Shown here: one piece after another, positions 3,737 to 42,673 of the stretch | Numbering within the stretch: position 1 is the first letter of the stretch | Layout: each line of letters starts with the position of its first letter | Assembly (NCBI RefSeq): GCF_044324875.1 | Contig: NZ_CP172185.1 | Strand: one strand, 5' to 3' | DNA: 64,000 bases | From: Escherichia coli | GTDB lineage: Bacteria > Pseudomonadota > Gammaproteobacteria > Enterobacterales > Enterobacteriaceae | Made by a program: the position numbers and the translations under genes | Notes under the pieces: model-generated | Database searches by the model: none | The model's input: the letters and a program-made list of their open reading frames with translations, nothing else | What the model was told of the DNA's origin: nothing

Positions 3737-4599
3737 GCTTAGTCAGCCGTTGTCTCCGGGTCTCACGTGCGCAACTGCATGCCATGGCCCGTCGGTCGAA
3801 GGACTGGCAGGATCGTCGGTGCAAGCGCAAGCCTGATGATACTGACGCGCTGGCCCGTATCCATACCGTTATCGGCGATCTGCCCACCTATGGTTATCGT
3901 CGGGTATGGGCACTGCTGCGCAGACAATCAGAAACTGACGACATGGCGGTGATCAATGCCAAACGCGTATACCGCATCATGCGTCAGAATGCGCTGCTGC
4001 TTGAGCGTAAACCGGAAATACCGCCATCGAAGCGGGCGCATACAGGGAAAGTGGCCGTTGGAGAAAGTAACCAGCGGTGGTGCTCTGACGGCTTCGAGTT
4101 CAGCTGTGATAACGGTGAAAAACTGCGGGTCACGTTCGCTCTGGACTGTTGCGATCGCGAGGCACTTTACTGGGCGGCCAGTAACGGTGGATATGACAGT
4201 GAAACCGTGCAGGACGTCATGCTGGGTGCCGTGGAGCGTCGTTTCGGTAACAGCCTGCCGACATCCCCAGTTGAGTGGCTGACAGACAACGGTTCAGCCT
4301 ACCGTTCTTATCAGACGCGTCAGTTCGCCAGAATGGTAGGACTGGAGCCTAAACATACGGCGGTACGTAGCCCGGAAAGCAACGGGATGGCAGAGAGCTT
4401 CGTGAAAACGATGAAGCGCGATTACATCAGCATCATGCCGAAACCCGACGGGTTAACAGCGGTAAAGAACCTTGCGGAGGCCTTCGAACATTACAACGAA
4501 TGGCATCCGCATAGTGCACTGGGGTATCGTTCGCCACGGGAATATCTGCGGCGGCGAACCAGTAATGGGTTAAGTGATAAAAAGTGTATGGAAATATAG
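3694..4599 (+). CDS. insD: IS2 transposase OrfB (InsD), DDE integrase core
   Basis: 301-aa ORF overlapping insC in a different frame (programmed frameshift arrangement); sequence matches IS2 InsD. Confidence 0.9.
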
Positions 4600-5905: not shown

Positions 5906-6901
5906 CTAGATTGACTCGCGGGGAAGCCAGGGACTCTCAACTATCACTTTATCCCGGTGGGTGTCACCATTGATAATGTGCAGTGTACTTAAGCGCCCAA
6001 TTTCATAATGCGGTAGCTGGACCGTGGATAATGGGGGTAAAAATAAGTTTCCAATGCCTACAAGATTGTCATAGCCAAGAACGGCAATATCCTGTGGGAT
6101 TCTGATACCCTGCGTTAACAATGTTTGATACACCATAAATGCAATACGATCGTTACCACAGATGACCGAATCAAATCGCGGTTTCCCCTGTTCGATATGC
6201 GCCAGCAACATCTCCGGAATATCTCGGTAGTGCTCATCGCCGAATTGCATATAGCAGTGCTCAAGCGTATCAGGATCGATACTGGCTTCCCTGCAGGCGC
6301 GATCAAGCCCACGACGACGACGACGCGTCGCCAGATGGTTGACGGGTAAATGCAGGCATAGAGGGCGGCTGTATCCTGCTGCCAGCAGTGCCTGTACGGC
6401 CGTATACTGGCCATGTTCATCGTCAGGTATATAGCTGGCAACCGGCTCTCCCTTGTTCTCGCAGTTGGCCAGAACGCAAGGAAGCTCCAGTAACCGGGGA
6501 GGAATACTGACTTCACGCAGCCCCATGGTAGTAAAAATGATCCCCCCGGGTCGATGGGCGAGCAGCAGGTCGACAATATCGTCAGGATTATCATCGGTAA
6601 ACATATTCACCACAAAGCTGTTCCAGCCATACGCCCGCGCGGTTTCTTCAATAGACAGCGTGATTTCTACTGAAAAAGGAGTGGTGACCGTATCCAGCGC
6701 AAGCACACCAATCGTTTTGTTCCGGGTGCCAACACGACGAATCTGCTGGGCAGAAAGGTCTGGCACATAATTTAACTGCGTGATCGCCTCCTGCACCCGA
6801 GCCAGAGTCTCAGGCTTTACGCGTTTCGGGTCATTCAGCACCCGTGAAACCGTCATGAGCGATACATTGGCCAGTTTGGCCACATCCTTTAAAGACGCCA
6901 T
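5906..6901 (-). CDS. fosR: LacI/GalR-family repressor, CscR-like (FosR-like), divergent from the transporter operon
   Basis: 331 aa; N-terminal HTH MASLKDVAKLANVSLMTVSRVLN; strong similarity across its length to the E. coli sucrose repressor CscR from memory; gene symbol by recalled synteny with the fos locus. Confidence 0.75.
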   Translation of the reverse strand: MASLKDVAKLANVSLMTVSRVLNDPKRVKPETLARVQEAITQLNYVPDLSAQQIRRVGTRNKTIGVLALDTVTTPFSVEITLSIEETARAYGWNSFVVNMFTDDNPDDIVDLLLAHRPGGIIFTTMGLREVSIPPRLLELPCVLANCENKGEPVASYIPDDEHGQYTAVQALLAAGYSRPLCLHLPVNHLATRRRRRGLDRACREASIDPDTLEHCYMQFGDEHYRDIPEMLLAHIEQGKPRFDSVICGNDRIAFMVYQTLLTQGIRIPQDIAVLGYDNLVGIGNLFLPPLSTVQLPHYEIGRLSTLHIINGDTHRDKVIVESPWLPRESI

Positions 6902-7033
6902 AGTTTTCCATTATCTGAATGCATACACCCGGTAAGGTGTTGTGAGCAAATGCGAATGCCCTATTCTAGGCACGGACACCCAGGGTTATGCAGACCACTC
7001 TGATAAATTTGAGCTAGATCTCAACATTTCAAT

Positions 7034-7045
7034 GTTAACGTTAAC
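7034..7045. promoter_or_regulatory. Candidate LacI-family operator, perfect 12-bp palindrome centred on CG
   Basis: GTTAACGTTAAC is its own reverse complement; about 100 bp upstream of the transporter start, in the divergent fosR/fosT intergenic region. Confidence 0.4.
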
Positions 7046-7095
7046 TTTTGTGATTAACATCGACAAACAAATCAAAATCGAGTGTCCCCCCAAAA

Positions 7096-7109
7096 TGATA
7101 ACGTTACCA
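7096..7109. promoter_or_regulatory. Candidate LacI-family operator (TGATAACGTTACCA)
   Basis: Near-palindrome fitting the TGnAAnCGnTTnCA pattern of LacI/GalR operators; about 35 bp upstream of the transporter ATG at 7142. Confidence 0.4.
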
Positions 7110-7141
7110 TATTAGCATATCCTTCTTACGAGATTACGTAG

Positions 7142-8380
7142 ATGAAAAAACGGCCTACTCGAAGTTACATGCTGCTCAGCGCTCTGCTGTTCTTTTTCTT
7201 TGTGACCTGGTCCTCATCAAGTTCACTGCTCTCAATCTGGCTTCACCAGGAAGTGGGGCTAAAAGCATCGGAAACCGGCATTATTTTTTCAGTATTATCC
7301 GTCTCCGCGCTCTTCGCGCAGGTCTGTTATGGCTTTATTCAGGACCGACTTGGTCTGCGCAAACATTTGTTATGGTTTATCACCGCGTTGTTGATCCTCT
7401 CCGGCCCGGCTTATCTGCTTTTTAGTTATTTGCTGAGCGTTAATATTCTGCTGGGCAGCGTATTCGGGGGCTTATTTATCGGGCTGACGTTTAATGGGGG
7501 TATCGGCGTTCTGGAGTCCTATACCGAGCGCGTCGCGCGTCAAAGTACCTTTGAGTTTGGGCGGGCACGCATGTGGGGGTCTCTGGGCTGGGCAGTTGCC
7601 ACGTTTTTTGCCGGGTTACTGTTTAATATCAACCCTGACCTTAACTTCCTGGTGGCTTCATGCTCAGGGTTAATCTTCTTCTGCCTCCTGGCCCGATTAA
7701 AGGTGGCCGCGCCGGCAAGCATGGAGAAACTCGAAATTGGCGCTAAAAAAGTTTCTCTGGAAGACGCCCTGCGTCTGCTTACTCTGCCGCGCTTCTGGGC
7801 ACTGATATTCTTCGTGGTCGGAACCTGCATTTACGGCGTATACGATCAGCAATTCCCGGTCTATTTCTCATCACAGTTCCCGACATTACGCGAAGGGAAC
7901 GAGATGTTTGGCTATTTAAACTCTTTCCAGGTCTTTCTCGAGGCCGCAGGTATGTTTTGTGCGCCGTGGCTGGTTAATCGCATTGGTGCTAAAAATGGTC
8001 TGATATTCGCAGGAATGGTGATGGCGCTGCGCATGATTACTTCAGGGCTGGTGGAAGGCCCCCTGCTTATCTCCATTACCAAACTGCTTCACGCGGTCGA
8101 ACTGCCAATATTGTTAGTCGCCATATTTAAATACAACAGTCTGAATTTCGACAAACGTCTCTCCTCCACCATTTATCTGGTGGGATTTGCCTGCACCAGC
8201 TCCGTCATTGGTACCGTATTGTCCCCGCTGGCAGGCTTTAGCTATGAGAGATTTGGCTTCGCCCAATCCTATCTGATCATGGGCATCATGGTGTTCAGCA
8301 CCACGTTTATTTCCATTTTCCTTTTGCGCTCAACTAAATCCTCATCTGAGCCATCTTTTCTGCAGCAAAAAGCTGTGTAA
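7142..8380 (+). CDS. fosT: Oligosaccharide:H+ symporter, MFS (LacY/CscB-like)
   Basis: 412 aa, 12-TM hydrophobic profile, similar to CscB sucrose permease (…FQVFLEA…, …KLLHAVELP…); first gene of a tightly spaced operon. Confidence 0.8.
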   Translation: MKKRPTRSYMLLSALLFFFFVTWSSSSSLLSIWLHQEVGLKASETGIIFSVLSVSALFAQVCYGFIQDRLGLRKHLLWFITALLILSGPAYLLFSYLLSVNILLGSVFGGLFIGLTFNGGIGVLESYTERVARQSTFEFGRARMWGSLGWAVATFFAGLLFNINPDLNFLVASCSGLIFFCLLARLKVAAPASMEKLEIGAKKVSLEDALRLLTLPRFWALIFFVVGTCIYGVYDQQFPVYFSSQFPTLREGNEMFGYLNSFQVFLEAAGMFCAPWLVNRIGAKNGLIFAGMVMALRMITSGLVEGPLLISITKLLHAVELPILLVAIFKYNSLNFDKRLSSTIYLVGFACTSSVIGTVLSPLAGFSYERFGFAQSYLIMGIMVFSTTFISIFLLRSTKSSSEPSFLQQKAV

Positions 8381-8399: not shown

Positions 8400-9833
8400 A
8401 TGACATCCTTATTAGAACAGGCTGAACAGGTGCTTGAAAAAGCACAATCCGGGATTAATCCGCGCTGGTATCCGCGCTATCACCTCGCCCCTCGCGCAGG
8501 CTGGATGAATGATCCTAATGGCCTGGTATGGTTTGACGGCTGGTATCACGCCTTTTATCAACACCATCCCTACTCCCCGAAATGGGGTCCGATGCACTGG
8601 GGGCACGCCCGAAGCAAAGATCTGGTGCATTGGGAACATTTGCCCGTCGCGCTAGCGCCGGAAGGCCCGGCGGACAAAGACGGCTGTTTCTCAGGTTCCG
8701 CCGTGGTGGACGGCGATACGCTGGCGCTCATCTATACCGGACATAAATTTCACGGCCCGTCGGACACTGACGACAACCTCTACCAGGTGCAGTGTCTGGC
8801 GACCAGTCGTGACGGCATCCATTTTGAACGGCACGGCAAGGTGATTGATACACCGCCCGGACTGCATCACTTTCGCGATCCGAAGGTGTGGCGCGAAGGT
8901 GAGTTCTGGTACATGGTTGTCGGTTCCCGCGTGGAAAATACCGGTCAGGTGCGCCTGTACCGTTCCACCGATCTCCGCGAATGGCATGACGAAGGTATTT
9001 TCGCCGAGGCTGATGAAGGCAAGGGCTTTATGTGGGAATGCCCGGATTTCTTCCCCCTGGGAGAGAAGCGTGTCCTGATGTTCTCGCCGCAGGGCATGGC
9101 GGCGGAAGGGTATCACTATCGCAACCTGTTCCAGAGCGGTTATTTACTTGGGGACTGGCAGCCAGGTCAACCGTTCACCCACAGCGGACAATTTACTGAG
9201 CTGGACCACGGCCACGACTTTTATGCCCCGCAGAGTTTCCTGACCCCGGATGGCCGACGCATTGTCATCGGGTGGCTGGATATGTGGGAATCATCGATGC
9301 CCGAACAGCAGGATGGCTGGGCCGGAATGCTCTCGCTTCCTCGCGAATTAAGCCTTGTCGATGGTCGTGTGAGAATGAAACCTGCTGCCGAAGTGACCGC
9401 GCTGCGTGGCAGCTATTATCCCACGCCCGTCCGCTGTCTGAACAATCAGAACGTCCTTGTCGCGGCAAATGCCGACGCGGTCGAAGTTCAGTTGGCATGG
9501 GATTTGAGCGCATCGACGGCTGAACAGTTTGGTATCGCGTTGGGCGACGGGTTGAGAATTTACGTCGATGATCAGGCTGGGCGTCTGGTGGTGGAGCGCC
9601 GCTATCCGGAATATTCGCTGGAAGGCACTCGCAGTATTCCGCTTCCAGCAGACAGCGTTCTGTCACTGCGAATTTTTATTGACCGCTCATCGGTGGAAGT
9701 TTTTGTTAACGATGGTGACGCTTGCTTAAGCAGTCGTATTTATCCGCAGCCGGGCGAGCGTGATATTTCATTGTTTGCAAATCTGGGGAAGGCCTCATTA
9801 TACGATGCGGGATACTGGTCTTTAGATAAATAA
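8400..9833 (+). CDS. fosGH1: GH32 beta-fructofuranosidase / sucrose-6-phosphate hydrolase-like, no signal peptide (cytoplasmic)
   Basis: 477 aa with GH32 motifs WMNDPNGL, FRDPKV and WECPD; 19 bp after fosT. Confidence 0.8.
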   Translation: MTSLLEQAEQVLEKAQSGINPRWYPRYHLAPRAGWMNDPNGLVWFDGWYHAFYQHHPYSPKWGPMHWGHARSKDLVHWEHLPVALAPEGPADKDGCFSGSAVVDGDTLALIYTGHKFHGPSDTDDNLYQVQCLATSRDGIHFERHGKVIDTPPGLHHFRDPKVWREGEFWYMVVGSRVENTGQVRLYRSTDLREWHDEGIFAEADEGKGFMWECPDFFPLGEKRVLMFSPQGMAAEGYHYRNLFQSGYLLGDWQPGQPFTHSGQFTELDHGHDFYAPQSFLTPDGRRIVIGWLDMWESSMPEQQDGWAGMLSLPRELSLVDGRVRMKPAAEVTALRGSYYPTPVRCLNNQNVLVAANADAVEVQLAWDLSASTAEQFGIALGDGLRIYVDDQAGRLVVERRYPEYSLEGTRSIPLPADSVLSLRIFIDRSSVEVFVNDGDACLSSRIYPQPGERDISLFANLGKASLYDAGYWSLDK

Positions 9834-9925
9834 TTCTCCGTTCCGACCTGTTTCTTGCAGGGTGAGTTTTTATTTCTGCCAGTCTCTGGCTGGCATGTTA
9901 TTGTCTGGAATAATGAGAGAGCAAA

Positions 9926-11191
9926 ATGGATGAAAGCGTAATACCTCAAAATTGCATTACCTCGAAAGATAAAAATATATTTGTTCCAGGAAAACAGATG
10001 CTGGCATTAATGGTGACATTAGCAGCATTTCCTGCCATTGCTGAAGACGTTACAGGAAACTATCAAAGCTATTTTCAGGATGAATCAGACACCAACGGTA
10101 CGAGTGTTTCATTAGCCAATCAAGGCAATGAAAAATCATCCCTTAGCGCTTCATCTTCTCCGGTTGCTGCAGGTCAAAAACCTGAACTCACGACCTCGTC
10201 AAAGCCAGTGACGTTATCGGCACCAATGGAGAATAAGAAAACTGCAGTAGAAAAACGTCCTAAAGGGGATAACCCTAAAGATGTCAGTCTGTTGCGTTTA
10301 AGGCAGGAAGATCCGCCGGTTCACTGGAACAGTATTGGTCGTAACATGGAAGTGGGTAGCTTGCATGGGAACATTGGATCTCAGATAGAAATTGACGATG
10401 TTCGCTGGAGCAATAATAAGAAAAACAGCGGCAAGTTTAAACTCGCCACCATTCAGGCTTTTTTAAGGCACGATGAATTGCCTAACTGGTATTTCGGTTT
10501 CTGGAATGCCAGAGAAGACAGTTATAAAGGACAGTTCAGTAATCAGGACTATAAAGGCACCAATACCATCAATGAATTTTTTGTGGGCCATATTTTCGAA
10601 ACCTGGCGGGGTAATATCGGTACGGAAGTCATGGTCGGCTCCGAAACGGCAACTAAACGCTGGAAAAACCGGTTCAAAGTCTGGCAGGACCTGCGACTGT
10701 CCAACAAATGGAGCCTGGCCGGATACGCGTATGGCGAGTATCAGCCTCAGGGGAACGAACCGGGGAATGGCGATCTGGAGCAGTACATTTTCGAAATTGA
10801 GCCAGCCATTCAATACCGCGTGAATCCGGATCTCGGACTCTATTTGCGGCCCTATTATTACCATAACCGCCAGGAGCGTCAGAGCTGGGGCGACATTGTA
10901 GAAGAAGAATGGAAAGTCACGGCCGGGCTCTGGCGAAACTGGTATCCATTATTAACCTCCCTGTATGTTGGATTTGGCCAGGACAAAATAGATAACGCCA
11001 GCAATGCCAGCGAAGTTTTCTATGACGGCCGTTATAAGTTTATCGGTGGAACGCTGAGTTATCCGGTATTTGGTGAGGTGCGATTATATGGTGAATTCAA
11101 GGCACAATTTACGAAAGAAACCGGACTTTGGACATCAACCGGTCACTCATGGAATCCGTTTACCGTGGTTGGCGTGAATTATAACTTCTGA
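9926..11191 (+). CDS. fosX: Predicted outer-membrane beta-barrel protein (putative oligosaccharide channel); start probably internal near 9995
   Basis: Signal-peptide-like MLALMVTLAAFPAIA, Ser/Thr-rich linker, alternating-hydrophobic beta-strand pattern, C-terminal ...VGVNYNF with terminal Phe; paralogous to the ORF at 12712..13725. Confidence 0.6.
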   Translation: MDESVIPQNCITSKDKNIFVPGKQMLALMVTLAAFPAIAEDVTGNYQSYFQDESDTNGTSVSLANQGNEKSSLSASSSPVAAGQKPELTTSSKPVTLSAPMENKKTAVEKRPKGDNPKDVSLLRLRQEDPPVHWNSIGRNMEVGSLHGNIGSQIEIDDVRWSNNKKNSGKFKLATIQAFLRHDELPNWYFGFWNAREDSYKGQFSNQDYKGTNTINEFFVGHIFETWRGNIGTEVMVGSETATKRWKNRFKVWQDLRLSNKWSLAGYAYGEYQPQGNEPGNGDLEQYIFEIEPAIQYRVNPDLGLYLRPYYYHNRQERQSWGDIVEEEWKVTAGLWRNWYPLLTSLYVGFGQDKIDNASNASEVFYDGRYKFIGGTLSYPVFGEVRLYGEFKAQFTKETGLWTSTGHSWNPFTVVGVNYNF

Positions 11192-11205
11192 TATTCAGGT
11201 GTAGC

Positions 11206-12699
11206 ATGAAAAAATTAATAGTTGCGGCATCTTTCGCTCTGCTTGCGCTTTCGCTCGGCAATAACCCTGCCTGGTCACAGCCTTCGAAAGAGACATTACA
11301 GAATAAAAGCATCACCCATATTAATGGCTTTTTTCCGAGGGTTGAAGGTTCATTCGTGGGCGACCCTATGCCCGTTTTTAACGATGGCAAATTTGATATT
11401 TATTATCTTAATGATGTCCGAGGCGGCAGCGATCTGGGGGTACATGCTTTTCATCTCTTGTCGAGTGCCAACTTGTATGATTATCAGAACCATTCGGAAG
11501 TGATCCCCTACGTTAACGACGTTGACGATCCTGAACTGTTATTGGGAACCGGTTCGATTATTAAAGTCGGCGATACCTGGCATGCCTGGTACACCGCACA
11601 CAATGAAAATGTGTTCCCGGTTGAGTCTGTTATGCACGCGACCAGTAAGGACCGCCTTCACTGGGTGAAACACCCGCAGGACACCCTGTTACCCGGCGGT
11701 AACTATCGGGGTAATGATTTCAGGGACCCTCACGTCGTTTGGGTTGAGGAAAAGAAAGAATACTGGATGTTAATTACTACGCGCAGTAATGGTCGTGGGG
11801 TTATTGCCCGATACAGTTCAACGGATTTAAAGCACTGGGAAGATCGCGGCGTATTTTTTGATAACGACACCATCACCAGCAATGCCAACCTCGAATGCCC
11901 GACACTGGTTTACTTCAACGGACGCTGGTATCTCAGCTTTAGCGACCAATGGCCGTTACGCCTGACACAATACCGGGTTGCGGACAATCCGGAGGGGCCG
12001 TGGCGGAAACTGGACAATTATGTGGTCGACGGCTCAGGTTTTTACGCGGGTAAACTGGTTCTCAAAAACGATCGGCTGTTTGTTTTCGGCTGGATCCCGA
12101 CGAAAGCCGGTAACCGTGACAGCGGCAACATTGATTGGGCAGGGAATCTGGTTGCTCATGAGCTCACCGCAGATGCCCAGGGCCAGCTCAACAGCATCCT
12201 CCCCCAGGAGCTTCAGAAGGTCATCAGTGAGAATCCTGGCCCGGAAACCACCTTGACGAGCACTAAGACACTCAAAACGGACACGTCGTTCGGCCCCTTA
12301 CAGTCGGCGCTGTACCCGGCCTTGCCTGAGCGCGGTGAGTTGAGTGCAACCATCGATGTTCCTTCTGCCGGAATGGTGATGAGCTTTGGTCTGACCGACG
12401 ACAGAGTCAGTGATGCGATGCTGAACGTTGTGTTCAATAAGAGCAAAGGAAAAGTCTATTTTTTCAACGCGCCGCTAGCGTCGATTCATCAGGCTAACGC
12501 GGAATCCTGGGTGGACATTCCGATCGGGGAAAAAATTGAGTTACGCGTTCTCATACAAAACTCAATTGCTGTCTTTTATATAAACAACAAAGTGGCATTC
12601 AGTACCCGGATGTATTCCATGCAGGAGAAACCGTGGAGTATTAGCCTGCCTCAAAACGACCATTTTCACGCGACGTTGAAAATAAAAGAAATGATTTAA
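11206..12699 (+). CDS. fosGH2: GH32 beta-fructofuranosidase (levanase/inulinase-like) with N-terminal signal peptide (exported)
   Basis: 497 aa; signal peptide MKKLIVAASFALLALSLGNNPAWSQP; GH32 catalytic motifs (FRDPHV, ECP); 14 bp after the preceding gene. Confidence 0.8.
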   Translation: MKKLIVAASFALLALSLGNNPAWSQPSKETLQNKSITHINGFFPRVEGSFVGDPMPVFNDGKFDIYYLNDVRGGSDLGVHAFHLLSSANLYDYQNHSEVIPYVNDVDDPELLLGTGSIIKVGDTWHAWYTAHNENVFPVESVMHATSKDRLHWVKHPQDTLLPGGNYRGNDFRDPHVVWVEEKKEYWMLITTRSNGRGVIARYSSTDLKHWEDRGVFFDNDTITSNANLECPTLVYFNGRWYLSFSDQWPLRLTQYRVADNPEGPWRKLDNYVVDGSGFYAGKLVLKNDRLFVFGWIPTKAGNRDSGNIDWAGNLVAHELTADAQGQLNSILPQELQKVISENPGPETTLTSTKTLKTDTSFGPLQSALYPALPERGELSATIDVPSAGMVMSFGLTDDRVSDAMLNVVFNKSKGKVYFFNAPLASIHQANAESWVDIPIGEKIELRVLIQNSIAVFYINNKVAFSTRMYSMQEKPWSISLPQNDHFHATLKIKEMI

Positions 12700-12711
12700 C
12701 GGGATATTATT

Positions 12712-13725
12712 ATGAAAAACTATCATGCCCTGTCTGTTATTTTTACTCTTATGTTACCCGCGCTGGCGAATGCGAGCATGAGCATCATGAAGGATCCGTC
12801 TGGAAAGGTTATCGCCGTGGACCCTTGGTCATATCTTGATGAAGATGTTATGTGGACCTCAGCCCGCTCCTCCAATCCTGCCGGTGGCCGCGTTCATGGC
12901 CAACTGAAAATGAAATATGCCATTGAGGATAATAACTGGCGTAACAGCCATTTCCACAACGGGAATGATTCGCTGACGTTTGTACAAGGTGTGATGCGGC
13001 ACGATGCGTTACCCGGTTGGTATCTGGCTTTCTCTGAGGGCAGAACCACTAACTATAACGGGACGTGGGAGGATCAGTCTTACCTCAGCCAAAACCAGTG
13101 GACTCAGTTGATCATCGGCCATGAATATTTTTACAAGCGTCTGCGCTATGGCTGGGATGTGATGGGAGGAAGCGCCTCAATCGAAGACCGCTGGCAAGGC
13201 CGCGTTAAGTTCTTTACCGATCTTCGGGTTACGGATAATTTCTCATTCTTTAACTACCTGTATCAGCAGATCGATCACCGGCGCAGCGGTGGGTCGCAAA
13301 ACGACCGTGACGTGCGTTCATTTCAGATTGAGCCAGGCGTGCAATACATTATTAATAACAACACCGGTGTCTGGTTCCGCCAGCAGTTCGCATCTGCCAT
13401 TTTAGACAGGGCGCAGTGGGGCGATATCGACGAAAAAAGCTGGACCACGTCAGTCGGCGTCTGGCGAAACTGGGGGAAGTTATCCACAACGCTCAGCGGC
13501 GGTTATGGTCATTATAAGAAATACAATGCGCAACCTGAGGATGGCGAAGTCTTTCAGAATACCCGCAATCGCTTCCTGAAGGTATCGGCAAATTATCCTT
13601 TGACCTCTCGTTTTACCGTGTCCGGAGAAGTTACTGGTTCGTTGATCAAACAGAACGGAAGTTGGGTCACTAACGGTGAGGCCATTACCACTGAGTATAA
13701 GCTGATGCTGGATTATAACTTTTAA
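12712..13725 (+). CDS. fosY: Predicted outer-membrane beta-barrel protein, paralogue of fosX
   Basis: 337 aa; signal peptide MKNYHALSVIFTLMLPALANA; shared motifs with the 9926 ORF (HDxLPxWY, WGDIxExxWxxxxGxWRNW); C-terminal ...LMLDYNF. Confidence 0.6.
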   Translation: MKNYHALSVIFTLMLPALANASMSIMKDPSGKVIAVDPWSYLDEDVMWTSARSSNPAGGRVHGQLKMKYAIEDNNWRNSHFHNGNDSLTFVQGVMRHDALPGWYLAFSEGRTTNYNGTWEDQSYLSQNQWTQLIIGHEYFYKRLRYGWDVMGGSASIEDRWQGRVKFFTDLRVTDNFSFFNYLYQQIDHRRSGGSQNDRDVRSFQIEPGVQYIINNNTGVWFRQQFASAILDRAQWGDIDEKSWTTSVGVWRNWGKLSTTLSGGYGHYKKYNAQPEDGEVFQNTRNRFLKVSANYPLTSRFTVSGEVTGSLIKQNGSWVTNGEAITTEYKLMLDYNF

Positions 13726-13838
13726 ACCGTACGCTGGATAATCCATGCCACCTGAACACGCTGAAGCGTTAGTAAAAATAGTGACCTTACCGCAGGTCAC
13801 GTTTAAAAAAACAAGTTAATTATTATTAAGGAAATATC

Positions 13839-14801
13839 ATGAATATCTGGACTCTTGGCGATGCTGTTGTTGATCTTCTACCCCTTACAGATATGCAATT
13901 TCGTGCTTGTGCAGGAGGTGCGCCATTTAATGTTGCGATAGGTACTGCACAATTGAAATGTCGTACCGGCTTTATAGGTCGCGTAGGGGATGACGATTTT
14001 GGCCATTTCCTGAGAAAAACTCTCGAAGATTCAGGAGTTTCTACACAATGTATCCAAATGGATAAATATCATCGTACAAGTACAGTACTGGTTTCTCTTA
14101 AAGATCAGGGAGAACGTGGTTTTACATTTCTTACGAACCCTTCAGCCGACCAATTTCTAACACAAGATGCCCTTCCAGCTTTTAGTGATGATATCCTGCA
14201 TTTTTGTTCACTTGCGCTGGTTGCTGCAGATTGCCGCACGACTTTGACTAAAGCAGTCCAGGAAGTCATTGACCACGGTGGACTTATCAGCTTTGATGTT
14301 AATTTACGAGACCAAATGTGGCGTGATAAGGAAGAAATGTTTGCGACAGTGAGTCAATTCGCTGAAAAAGCCGATATCCTTAAACTCTCTGAAGAAGAGT
14401 GGTACTGGTTAATGGGTACACATGATTATACAGAGGCGTTAGAAGCACTCAAAACCCATCCTGCCAGATTAAAAGTGGTCACCTTTGGTGCGAGAGGTTC
14501 ATTGGTATTATGGCAAGATATGGTGATACATTTCAGAGGATTTAATGTTAAAAGTATTGACACAACAGGCGCTGGAGATGCTTTTATGGCTGGGTTACTT
14601 GCCAGCATCGCCAATAAAGGTTTGCCAATGAATTTTCCAGAACTTCAATTAGCAATCACTCAGGCCAGTGCCACCGGAGCGCTCGCAACTACCAAAAAAG
14701 GTGCACTTACCGCCCTTCCTGATACAGCCGCACTGGAAACGTTCATTAATCATTTTCCATTACCGGGCTATGAGATCCTTGGAGCAACCGCTACGGTGTA
14801 A
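13839..14801 (+). CDS. fosK: Fructokinase, PfkB/ribokinase family (CscK-like)
   Basis: 320 aa; N-terminal GD motif (MNIWTLGDAVVDLL) and C-terminal TTGAGDAF anion-hole motif; visibly more AT-rich than upstream genes. Confidence 0.8.
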   Translation: MNIWTLGDAVVDLLPLTDMQFRACAGGAPFNVAIGTAQLKCRTGFIGRVGDDDFGHFLRKTLEDSGVSTQCIQMDKYHRTSTVLVSLKDQGERGFTFLTNPSADQFLTQDALPAFSDDILHFCSLALVAADCRTTLTKAVQEVIDHGGLISFDVNLRDQMWRDKEEMFATVSQFAEKADILKLSEEEWYWLMGTHDYTEALEALKTHPARLKVVTFGARGSLVLWQDMVIHFRGFNVKSIDTTGAGDAFMAGLLASIANKGLPMNFPELQLAITQASATGALATTKKGALTALPDTAALETFINHFPLPGYEILGATATV

Positions 14802-27795: not shown

Positions 27796-27890
27796 TGGCG
27801 GAAGATCACAGGAGTCGAACCTGCCCGGGACCGCTGGCGGCCCCAACTGGATTTGAAGTCCAGCCGCCTCACCGGAGACGACGATCTTCC
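27796..27890 (-). tRNA. selC: tRNA-Sec (selenocysteine), anticodon UCA
   Basis: Minus-strand sequence GGAAGATCGTCGTCTCCGGTGAGGCGGCTGGACTTCAAATCCAGTTGGGGCCGCCAGCGGTCCCGGGCAGGTTCGACTCCTGTGATCTTCCGCCA matches E. coli selC; long variable arm. Confidence 0.95.
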
Positions 27891-41003: not shown

Positions 41004-42395
41004 TTACTGTTTTTCTGGTGGGAAAATCAGATTCAGCACGATGGCAGTAATACCGCCCGCGGCGATCCCGGAGGAGAGCAGGTTTTTCAGCCACTCAGGG
41101 GCAAACTGCAAAATCAGCGGCTGCTGAGAGACGCCCAGACCAACCGCCAGCGACAGCGCGATAATCAGAATCGCCCGACGGTTCAGCGGCTCACGAGACA
41201 CAATGCGCACACCGGAGGCGGCGATGGTGCCAAACATTACAAGTGTTGCGCCGCCCAGAACCGGTTCTGGAATATGTTGTACAAAACCGCTCACTGCCGG
41301 GAACAGACCCAGCACGATCAACATCAGCGCGACGACAAAACCGACATAGCGGCTGGCAACCCCGGTCAACTGGATCACTCCGTTGTTCTGCCCGAAGCAG
41401 GAGTTCGGGAAGGTGTTAAACACCGCCGAAACAAACGAGTTCAGGCCGTTTGCTAGCACGCCGCCTTTCAGGCGTTTCATGTACAGTGGACCGGACACTG
41501 GCTGTTCGGAAACGTCAGAGGTCGCCGTGATATCGCCAATGGTTTCCAGTGAAGTGATCATAAAGACCAGCATCAGCGGCAGCAGCAGACTCCATTCAAT
41601 GCCAAGACCGTAATAGAGCGGCGTTGGCACCATAATCAGTTCTTGCGTCATCGGTTCGTTGCTTTCTGGCAACATGCCCATAAACCACGCCAGCGCATAT
41701 CCGGCCGCCATCGCAATCACCAGTGAGGCCACGCGTAAGTAAGGGTTACGTTGACGGTTAAGCAGGATAATTAAGGCTAAGACCACGCCTGCCAGCAGCA
41801 GATTTTTCGGTGCGCCGAAGGTGTTATCGCTCATGGCTGCGTAACCGCCGCCAATGGATGTTAGCCCCACCTGAATTAGCGACAGGCCGATAATCATCAC
41901 CACAACGCCAGAAACCAGCGGCGTAATAATGCGGCGCGCCAGATGCAGAACGCGGGAGATCACCATCTCGGTGCAACTTGCCAGCATCAACGTGCCGAAC
42001 AAAGCCGCCATCATGGTAGGAACATCAGCACCACCGGTTTTCAGCGCGGTACCGCCCATAATCAGTGGGGCAACAAAGTTGAAGCTGGTGCCCTGAATAG
42101 ACAACAGCCCGGAGCCAACCGGACCCCAGGCCTTAATTTGAATAATCGATGCCACACCGGAGGCAAACAGCGACATACTAATAATGTGTTGCGTGTCTTG
42201 TGCCGGTAAACCCAGCGCCTGGCAGATTAATAGCGCTGGCGTGATCACCGCAACGAACATCGCCAGCAAATGCTGACAGGCGGCAAACAGAGTTTGAGGA
42301 AGCGGCGGACGATCTTCAAGACGGTAAATCAGTTCGCTGTTTTGAGTCTGCGCAACCGGTTGCGCATTTTCTGACTCGAGGGTGGAAACAGACAT
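41004..42395 (-). CDS. xanP: Xanthine:H+ symporter XanP (NCS2 family)
   Basis: 463 aa from [16 protein letters not shown]...; matches E. coli XanP (YicE). Confidence 0.95.
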
Positions 42396-42673
42396 CGAAA
42401 ACAATCCCGTGGTAGCAAAGCGGGCATTTTAGCTGACCGAAAGAGAAAAGCAAACGTTTGCTACGGCCTCTGCTAAATATTTAAATGAGATAAATGCACT
42501 TTTTTATATAACTTTTGGTATTTTTCTGCTTAAAATCCATGCCATTTGTTCATTAACAGCTGAGAATTTGACCCAGGAAAGCATAACTCGATACCCGTCA
42601 TAGTTCATAAGTTGCCACTGCGCGATGAAGTATGACGAGTATGAAAGAGTGATGCGGATACAAAGGAGTAACT

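Follow-up and report, generated by a model that had tools for sequence, protein, structure and literature searches.

The control region between the divergent genes fosR and fosT of Escherichia coli, analyzed here within a window of 64,000 nucleotides (the whole stretch of DNA, to which all positions refer), harbored a pair of palindromic elements at 7033-7046 and 7096-7109, which very probably are the operators O1 (distal) and O2 (proximal) of the FosR repressor at the fos promoter of strain BEN2908. The finding of two operators is correct and was already known and, since the regulation of fos was worked out experimentally in 2011, it adds no new biology.

In that work, carried out with BEN2908, Porcheron et al. 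(2011, Mol Microbiol 81:717) found, as summarized in PMC3325963, that FosR occupies two operators of the fos promoter in the absence of short-chain fructooligosaccharides (scFOS). The same summary states that deletion of fosR derepressed a fos promoter-luciferase fusion, that fos expression was subject to catabolite repression through the binding of CRP-cAMP at the promoter region, and that the fos locus of Klebsiella, although its intergenic region was only 54% identical, retained the CRP site along with both operators (1 and 2). The present assignment rests on this summary and on footprinting across orthologous loci. The published operators and those described here share the strain sequence, the intergenic region, the arrangement of two operators with a CRP-cAMP site and the conservation in Klebsiella, and no difference between them is known, the match being drawn from a secondary description. 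The preliminary description of this DNA had proposed two operators of the adjacent LacI-family repressor, and this proposal is borne out by the flanking genes, by the identity to BEN2908 together with PMC3325963, by the footprinting and by the match to the csc operators.

The fos locus and its distribution

The gene names fosR and fosT are those used in PMC3325963, by the discoverers of the fos locus, and the gene content found here was that of the locus as described there. The relevant features were the following:

5906-6901, minus strand: fosR, LacI/GalR-family repressor of 331 aa, with the Pfam domains LacI HTH (PF00356, 3.6e-19) and Peripla_BP_1 (5.5e-45)
7142-8380, plus strand: fosT, LacY-family oligosaccharide/H+ symporter of 412 aa (PF01306, 6.9e-126; NF007077 above cut-off), first gene of the operon
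8400-9833, plus strand: GH32 gene (Pfam), start of the rest of the operon (8400-14801)
9926-11191, plus strand: OmpG-like porin gene (Pfam)
11206-12699, plus strand: second GH32 gene (Pfam)
12712-13725, plus strand: second OmpG-like porin gene (Pfam)
13839-14801, plus strand: PfkB fructokinase gene (Pfam), last of the operon
27796-27890, minus strand: tRNA-SeC, about 20 kb from the fos locus

The fosR product matched no NCBIfam equivalog at or above cut-off, and a close homologue with a solved structure was 6ndi (E = 9e-172, full length, two chains). Both porins are likely to be outer-membrane channels for oligosaccharide uptake. The 240-bp gap between the divergent fosR and fosT holds both operator motifs.

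The segment 5906-8380 was 100% identical to that of E. coli BEN2908 and was found at full length, either chromosomal or plasmid-borne, in 37 of 5426 complete E. coli genomes. The tRNA-SeC gene is possibly where the AGI-3 island, the carrier of fos according to PMC3325963, was inserted. In addition, Enterobacter sp. MGH 24 (NZ_KI535657.1) carried a fos locus whose FosR (100%), FosT (99.5%) and intergenic region (99%) were identical or nearly so to those of BEN2908, with which it also shared an unusual A at position 3 of O2; such near-identity points to a recent horizontal transfer between genera.

Sequence of the two operators

7033-7046: O1, distal operator, TGTTAACGTTAACT as a 14-mer, with the inner 12-mer GTTAACGTTAAC at 7034-7045
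7096-7109: O2, proximal operator, TGATAACGTTACCA

The inner 12-mer of O1 was a perfect palindrome centered on C7039/G7040, and the O1 14-mer was self-complementary at 12 of 14 positions, as was O2, whose central dinucleotide was C7102/G7103. The coordinates and the CG-centered palindrome given in the preliminary description were correct, and its estimates of the geometry were close: the operators, placed about 60 bp apart, were separated by 63 bp from center to center, and O2, placed about 35 bp before the transporter start, ended 33 bp before the fosT ATG at 7142, which is 39.5 bp from the O2 center. Its statement that O2 fits the LacI/GalR pattern TGnAAnCGnTTnCA held approximately and failed when taken strictly, since 2 of the 10 specified positions were mismatched in O2 (3 in O1) and no exact match to this pattern was found anywhere in the 64-kb window. 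The actual motif presented T/A instead of A/T at position +/-4, corresponding to the subfamily motif TGTTAACGTTAACA.

Perfect 12-bp palindromes were no rarity in the window, in which 18 were observed against 17.5 +/- 4 expected from first-order Markov simulations. The pair was another matter. The 8-bp core common to O1 and O2, TAACGTTA, had two copies in 64 kb, both of them in this intergenic region; moreover, O1 and O2 were the only matches in the window to TGNTAACGTTANCA with at most one mismatch and to the family consensus TGTTAACGTTAACA with at most two. Chance matches to TGTTAACGTTAACA were expected at 0.18 per 64 kb, and pairs within 100 bp at about 5e-5. A lone 12-bp palindrome is at chance level, whereas the operator pair exceeds chance. 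In a full-text search of the literature, TTAACGTTAAC was found only within unrelated primers.

Conservation across orthologous loci

Relatives of FosR with 75-95% identity were numerous across Enterobacterales, and an alignment of 22 sequences retrieved 80 loci, one per species, of which 54 had a divergent fosT orthologue and a spacer of 175-331 bp and constituted the footprinting set. Two exact TAACGTTA cores were present in 53 of these 54 control regions. Among the 53, the spacing between O1 and O2 was 64 bp in 39 loci, 63 bp in 13 and 62 bp in one, and the center of the proximal site was 37-42 bp from the transporter ATG. O1 read TGTTAACGTTAACT in 50 of the 53 orthologues and O2 read TGTTAACGTTACCA in 40, with the central CG being the same in every locus that had both sites. 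Column conservation reached 99.5% in O1 and 95.8% in O2, against 56% in the remaining spacer, and among the best 12 of the 14-column windows, 11 lay on O1/O2 and one on the adjoining block of CRP-like site B (described below). The operator invariance is matched by that of the regulator N-terminus, whose residues 1-23, including the recognition helix, were almost all invariant in the 22 sequences.

The O2 of BEN2908 (7098) carried an A at position 3 (TGATAAC...), where nearly all fos-type orthologues had T, and half-sites with GATAAC were common in a more distant csc-like group; O2 may therefore be weaker than O1 in BEN2908. The sole fos-type locus in which only one operator was found was that of Enterobacteriaceae bacterium UBA3516, with the ideal palindrome TGTTAACGTTAACA in a short 175-bp spacer.

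Beyond the fos-type group, loci whose regulators were only 60-70% identical to FosR kept the paired sites 63-64 bp apart, or 71 bp apart in two Brenneria-type loci. These distant pairs preceded a GH32 gene, a gene for an OmpG-like porin (in locus L057, the one directly following the operator pair), or a pair formed by a LacY-type symporter and a GH32 gene, and they persisted with altered gene order, even where the regulator was located away from the promoter, as in Serratia. Since the pair was kept without an adjacent regulator, the sites follow the catabolic promoter. The module of two operators and CRP sites is conserved from E. coli to Aeromonas.

Relationship with the csc, scr and lac systems

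About 2000 of the 5426 E. coli genomes had a weakly similar regulator gene, and the one such match examined, in the O103:H2 strain 12009, was cscR, located beside cscA, a kinase gene and a permease gene. CscR was 56% identical to FosR over 312 residues (E = 5e-126), with a near-identical N-terminus/HTH; it is a paralogue of FosR and not its orthologue, and FosR falls in the CscR clade. The preliminary description had pointed to the csc operators as a comparison, and the cscA-cscK spacer indeed contained TGTTAACGTTAACT twice, 64 bp apart, both copies identical to O1. Between them, and 17 bp from one of them, was TGCGATGAATATCACA, while the other copy was about 40 bp from the cscA ATG.

The two systems are alike in the double occurrence of the 12-bp repeat GTTAACGTTAAC in E. 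coli csc, in the CRP-like site 17 bp from the distal copy, in the distance of about 40 bp between the proximal copy and the first codon, and in the set of a LacY-type symporter, GH32 hydrolase and fructokinase. They differ in that the csc substrate is sucrose and that of fos is scFOS, in that the csc region separates cscA from cscKB, with cscR elsewhere, whereas the fos region separates fosR from the operon, and in that O2 of BEN2908, TGATAACGTTACCA, departs from the csc operator at two positions. According to the summary given in PMC11251922, Jahreis et al. (2002) found two 12-bp inverted repeats and a Crp site in csc, and a mutation in one repeat raised cscA expression; a spontaneous operator mutation that permits growth on low sucrose is described in PMC3938415. 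The fos operators are best described as csc-type operators, and the whole control module is homologous between the two systems. This common module consists of a CRP-like site, an operator, a CRP site, a variable spacer of about 30 bp, an operator, and about 40 bp to the ATG.

The scrY promoter of pUR400/Klebsiella belongs to a sucrose-type operon under the LacI-family repressor ScrR and is flanked by two 14-bp inverted repeats, with a CRP site upstream (Cowan 1991; Jahreis and Lengeler 1993, as summarized in PMC11251922). The Scr system uses the PTS route, as outlined in PMC3938415, in contrast with the LacY-type symporter of fos. ScrR belongs to another regulator subfamily, the score of FosR with the fructose/sucrose repressor model TIGR02417 being only 46 bits, and the likeness of the two systems is drawn from published descriptions.

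The fos arrangement also resembles that of lac, in which a LacI-family repressor has its main operator over the core promoter or start and an auxiliary operator just upstream of the CRP site (-61.5). In lac, however, the operators are about 92 bp apart, compared with 63 bp here, and LacI forms a tetramer via a C-terminal helix that FosR does not have.

CRP-like sites and candidate promoter elements

7008-7023: CRP-like site A, TTTGA-GCTAGA-TCTCA, center 7015.5, with 2 mismatches to TGTGA-N6-TCACA
7049-7064: CRP-like site B, TGTGA-TTAACA-TCGAC, center 7056.5, between O1 and O2
7105-7110, plus strand: TACCAT, putative -10 hexamer in conserved columns, overlapping O2
7130-7133, plus strand: GAGA, ribosome-binding site upstream of fosT, in a conserved GAGAT block

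Two CRP-like sites, with centers 41 bp apart, flanked O1. The block of site A (7003-7023) had 85% column conservation, its center was 24 bp from that of O1 in 48 of the 54 regions, and it was near-consensus in some relatives, such as CGTGATAATGATCACA in a Serratia csc-like locus. Site A may serve the fosR promoter or act as a second CRP site. Site B, with 90% column conservation, was centered 17 bp from the O1 center in all 54 regions and 45-47 bp from the O2 center, and it aligned positionally with the csc site TGTGATATTCATCGCA of E. coli. Relative to the CRP core, site B deviated at 1-2 positions in most species and at 3 in BEN2908, where only its left half was good.

It was also observed that the block TTTTGTGATTAACATC (7047-7061) beside O1 hardly varied, even in TTAACA, the 6-bp spacer of the CRP-like site, which CRP should not constrain. 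The same held for loci L057, L058, L062, L063 and L066, and Aeromonas kept the block as GATGTTAATCAC on the other strand. The string ATTAACA resembles an operator half-site (GTTAACA). TTAACA (7054-7059) had been considered as a -35 element that would explain this invariance, and it was rejected because neither the window nor the consensus had, on either strand, a -10-like hexamer at a distance of 16-18 bp downstream. A fosR promoter driven from site A with the -10 hexamer TAGAAT (complement of 6963-6968) was also considered as a candidate; its geometry was not conserved, a 6-bp indel lying between the two elements in most species.

A scan of 6850-7200 with the sigma-70 consensus revealed no canonical promoter, which fits an activator-dependent promoter. 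If TACCAT served as the -10 hexamer, the conserved CAT at 7116-7118 would mark the approximate start of transcription, and the center of site B would fall at about -60.5 (BEN2908) or -61.5 (most relatives). On the csc model, the start would instead lie inside the proximal operator; in csc, as summarized in PMC11251922, transcription starts within the proximal operator and the -10 element is upstream of it.

Proposed regulation of the fos operon

FosR repression, binding at two operators, CRP-cAMP binding and activation, and the dependence on scFOS were all reported in the summarized literature (PMC3325963); from the geometry of the region we infer the promoter position, the division of labor between the operators and any cooperation of two bound dimers. 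In the absence of scFOS, one FosR dimer would sit on each palindrome. As O2 is predicted to overlap the core promoter and start region of fosT, FosR bound there would block RNA polymerase, and this occlusion follows with either of the start options above. O1 touches the 22-bp CRP footprint expected at site B and is located between sites A and B, and its occupation would probably interfere with, or modulate, CRP-dependent activation; it may also influence the divergent fosR promoter. The scFOS inducer would release FosR from the operators, and CRP-cAMP would still be needed for full expression, which would lead to catabolite repression.

Possibly, O1 and its two flanking CRP-like sites constitute a CytR-like anti-activation unit instead of a simple auxiliary operator. 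In CytR promoters, the CRP sites are about 52-53 bp apart and the operators are weak and non-palindromic; in the fos region, O1 is flanked by two CRP-like sites, the centers of which are 41 bp apart.

Possible DNA looping between the operators

Alternatively, repression might rely on DNA looping, in which FosR molecules at O1 and O2 interact, as a tetramer or dimer to dimer, so that the intervening 63 bp form a loop that traps the promoter and the CRP site, as in lac O1-O3 or gal OE-OI. In favor of this model, 63 bp (64 in most relatives) corresponds to about six helical turns, the spacing was kept within +/-1 bp in 53 loci despite the divergence of the intervening sequence, and a CRP-like site is found inside the putative loop, as in lac. 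However, the alignment of FosR with LacI stopped at about LacI residue 300-326, and the C-terminal tetramerization helix was absent, with 26 FosR residues past the end of the alignment at LacI residue 300, compared with 60 in LacI. Furthermore, the operator spacing is the sum of two otherwise fixed distances (17 bp from O1 to site B in 54 of 54 regions, 45-47 bp from site B to O2), so that invariant distances from O1 to CRP and from CRP to the promoter explain it equally well. Two related loci had a 71-bp spacing, which puts the operators out of phase by about 0.7 turn; the 7 additional bp were located in the variable spacer. To our knowledge, a 63-bp loop would also be much shorter than the characterized LacI/GalR loops, which was counted against the model.

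The suggestion in the preliminary description that the spacing would allow repressor looping therefore found no support, given the missing tetramerization helix, the alternative account of the spacing and the 71 bp seen in two loci. The data are explained without it, and looping or cooperativity between the two dimers, although possible, is regarded as unlikely.

Other possible binders and possible cross-talk between FosR and CscR

The sites could in principle be targets of CscR, PurR or Cra, with FosR acting elsewhere. The identity of the CscR operators to O1 means that CscR could bind the fos region in csc-carrying strains, and PurR-type boxes, for example GCAAACGTTTGC at 42450, likewise have an AACGTT center. 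Nevertheless, in 53 of 54 loci the sites occurred together with a fosR-type regulator, an association that was also kept where the gene order was rearranged, and their flanks deviated from the PurR box at 2 of the 6 positions in each half-site. In addition, FosR binding in vitro was reported, as was the derepression of the promoter upon fosR deletion, according to the summary in PMC3325963. A binder other than FosR is accordingly considered very improbable. That the palindromes arose by chance and have no function is practically negligible, for perfect 12-bp palindromes did occur at the expected rate, but the core was unique to the region, the pair had the minute expectation given above, and the near-invariance across many genera, against the background of 56%, refutes it.

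The element GCAAACGTTTGC at 42450-42461 is itself a perfect palindrome with the core of a PurR-type box. It precedes an NCS2-family xanthine-permease-like gene (41004-42404, minus strand) by 46 bp and is located in a spacer shared with a gltS-like gene, after which recG follows. It is probably an ordinary PurR operator.

FosR and CscR read the same operator in the same module though they are only 56% identical, and therefore, in E. coli strains with both loci, they could cross-repress each other's operons. One plasmid is of interest in this context. The E. coli plasmid p98223-contig_3 (NZ_CP173476.1) carried a fos-like cluster with a transporter gene of 83% DNA identity, GH32, kinase and porin genes, and no repressor gene; a transposase remnant was found upstream, and homology to the window began just before O1. 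Its operator sites were at 4003-4016 and 4066-4079, where O1 was intact and the proximal site read TGTTAACCTTACCA, in which CC replaced the central CG. This was the only change of the central CG that was seen, and it was found in a copy that had lost its repressor gene. The change could reflect operator decay, or escape from CscR or FosR acting in trans.

It is conceivable, as a tentative and still doubtful idea, that FosR and CscR cross-repress in strains with both loci, integrating sucrose and fructooligosaccharide signals, that plasmid copies without fosR are under the control of chromosomal CscR in trans, with the CG-to-CC change being an escape mutation, or else that O1 acts in a CytR-like manner.

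Implications

According to PMC3325963, fos enables an avian extra-intestinal pathogenic E. coli to utilize prebiotic fructooligosaccharides and aids gut colonization, and engineered conjugative plasmids now carry the locus as a metabolic module for selection (bioRxiv 10.64898/2026.02.25.707879). The additions made here to the published regulation are modest: the fos operator is that of csc, the control module is conserved from E. coli to Aeromonas, and FosR does not have the tetramerization domain that LacI-style looping chiefly requires. Knowledge of the fos operators matters for engineering fos expression and for interpreting it.
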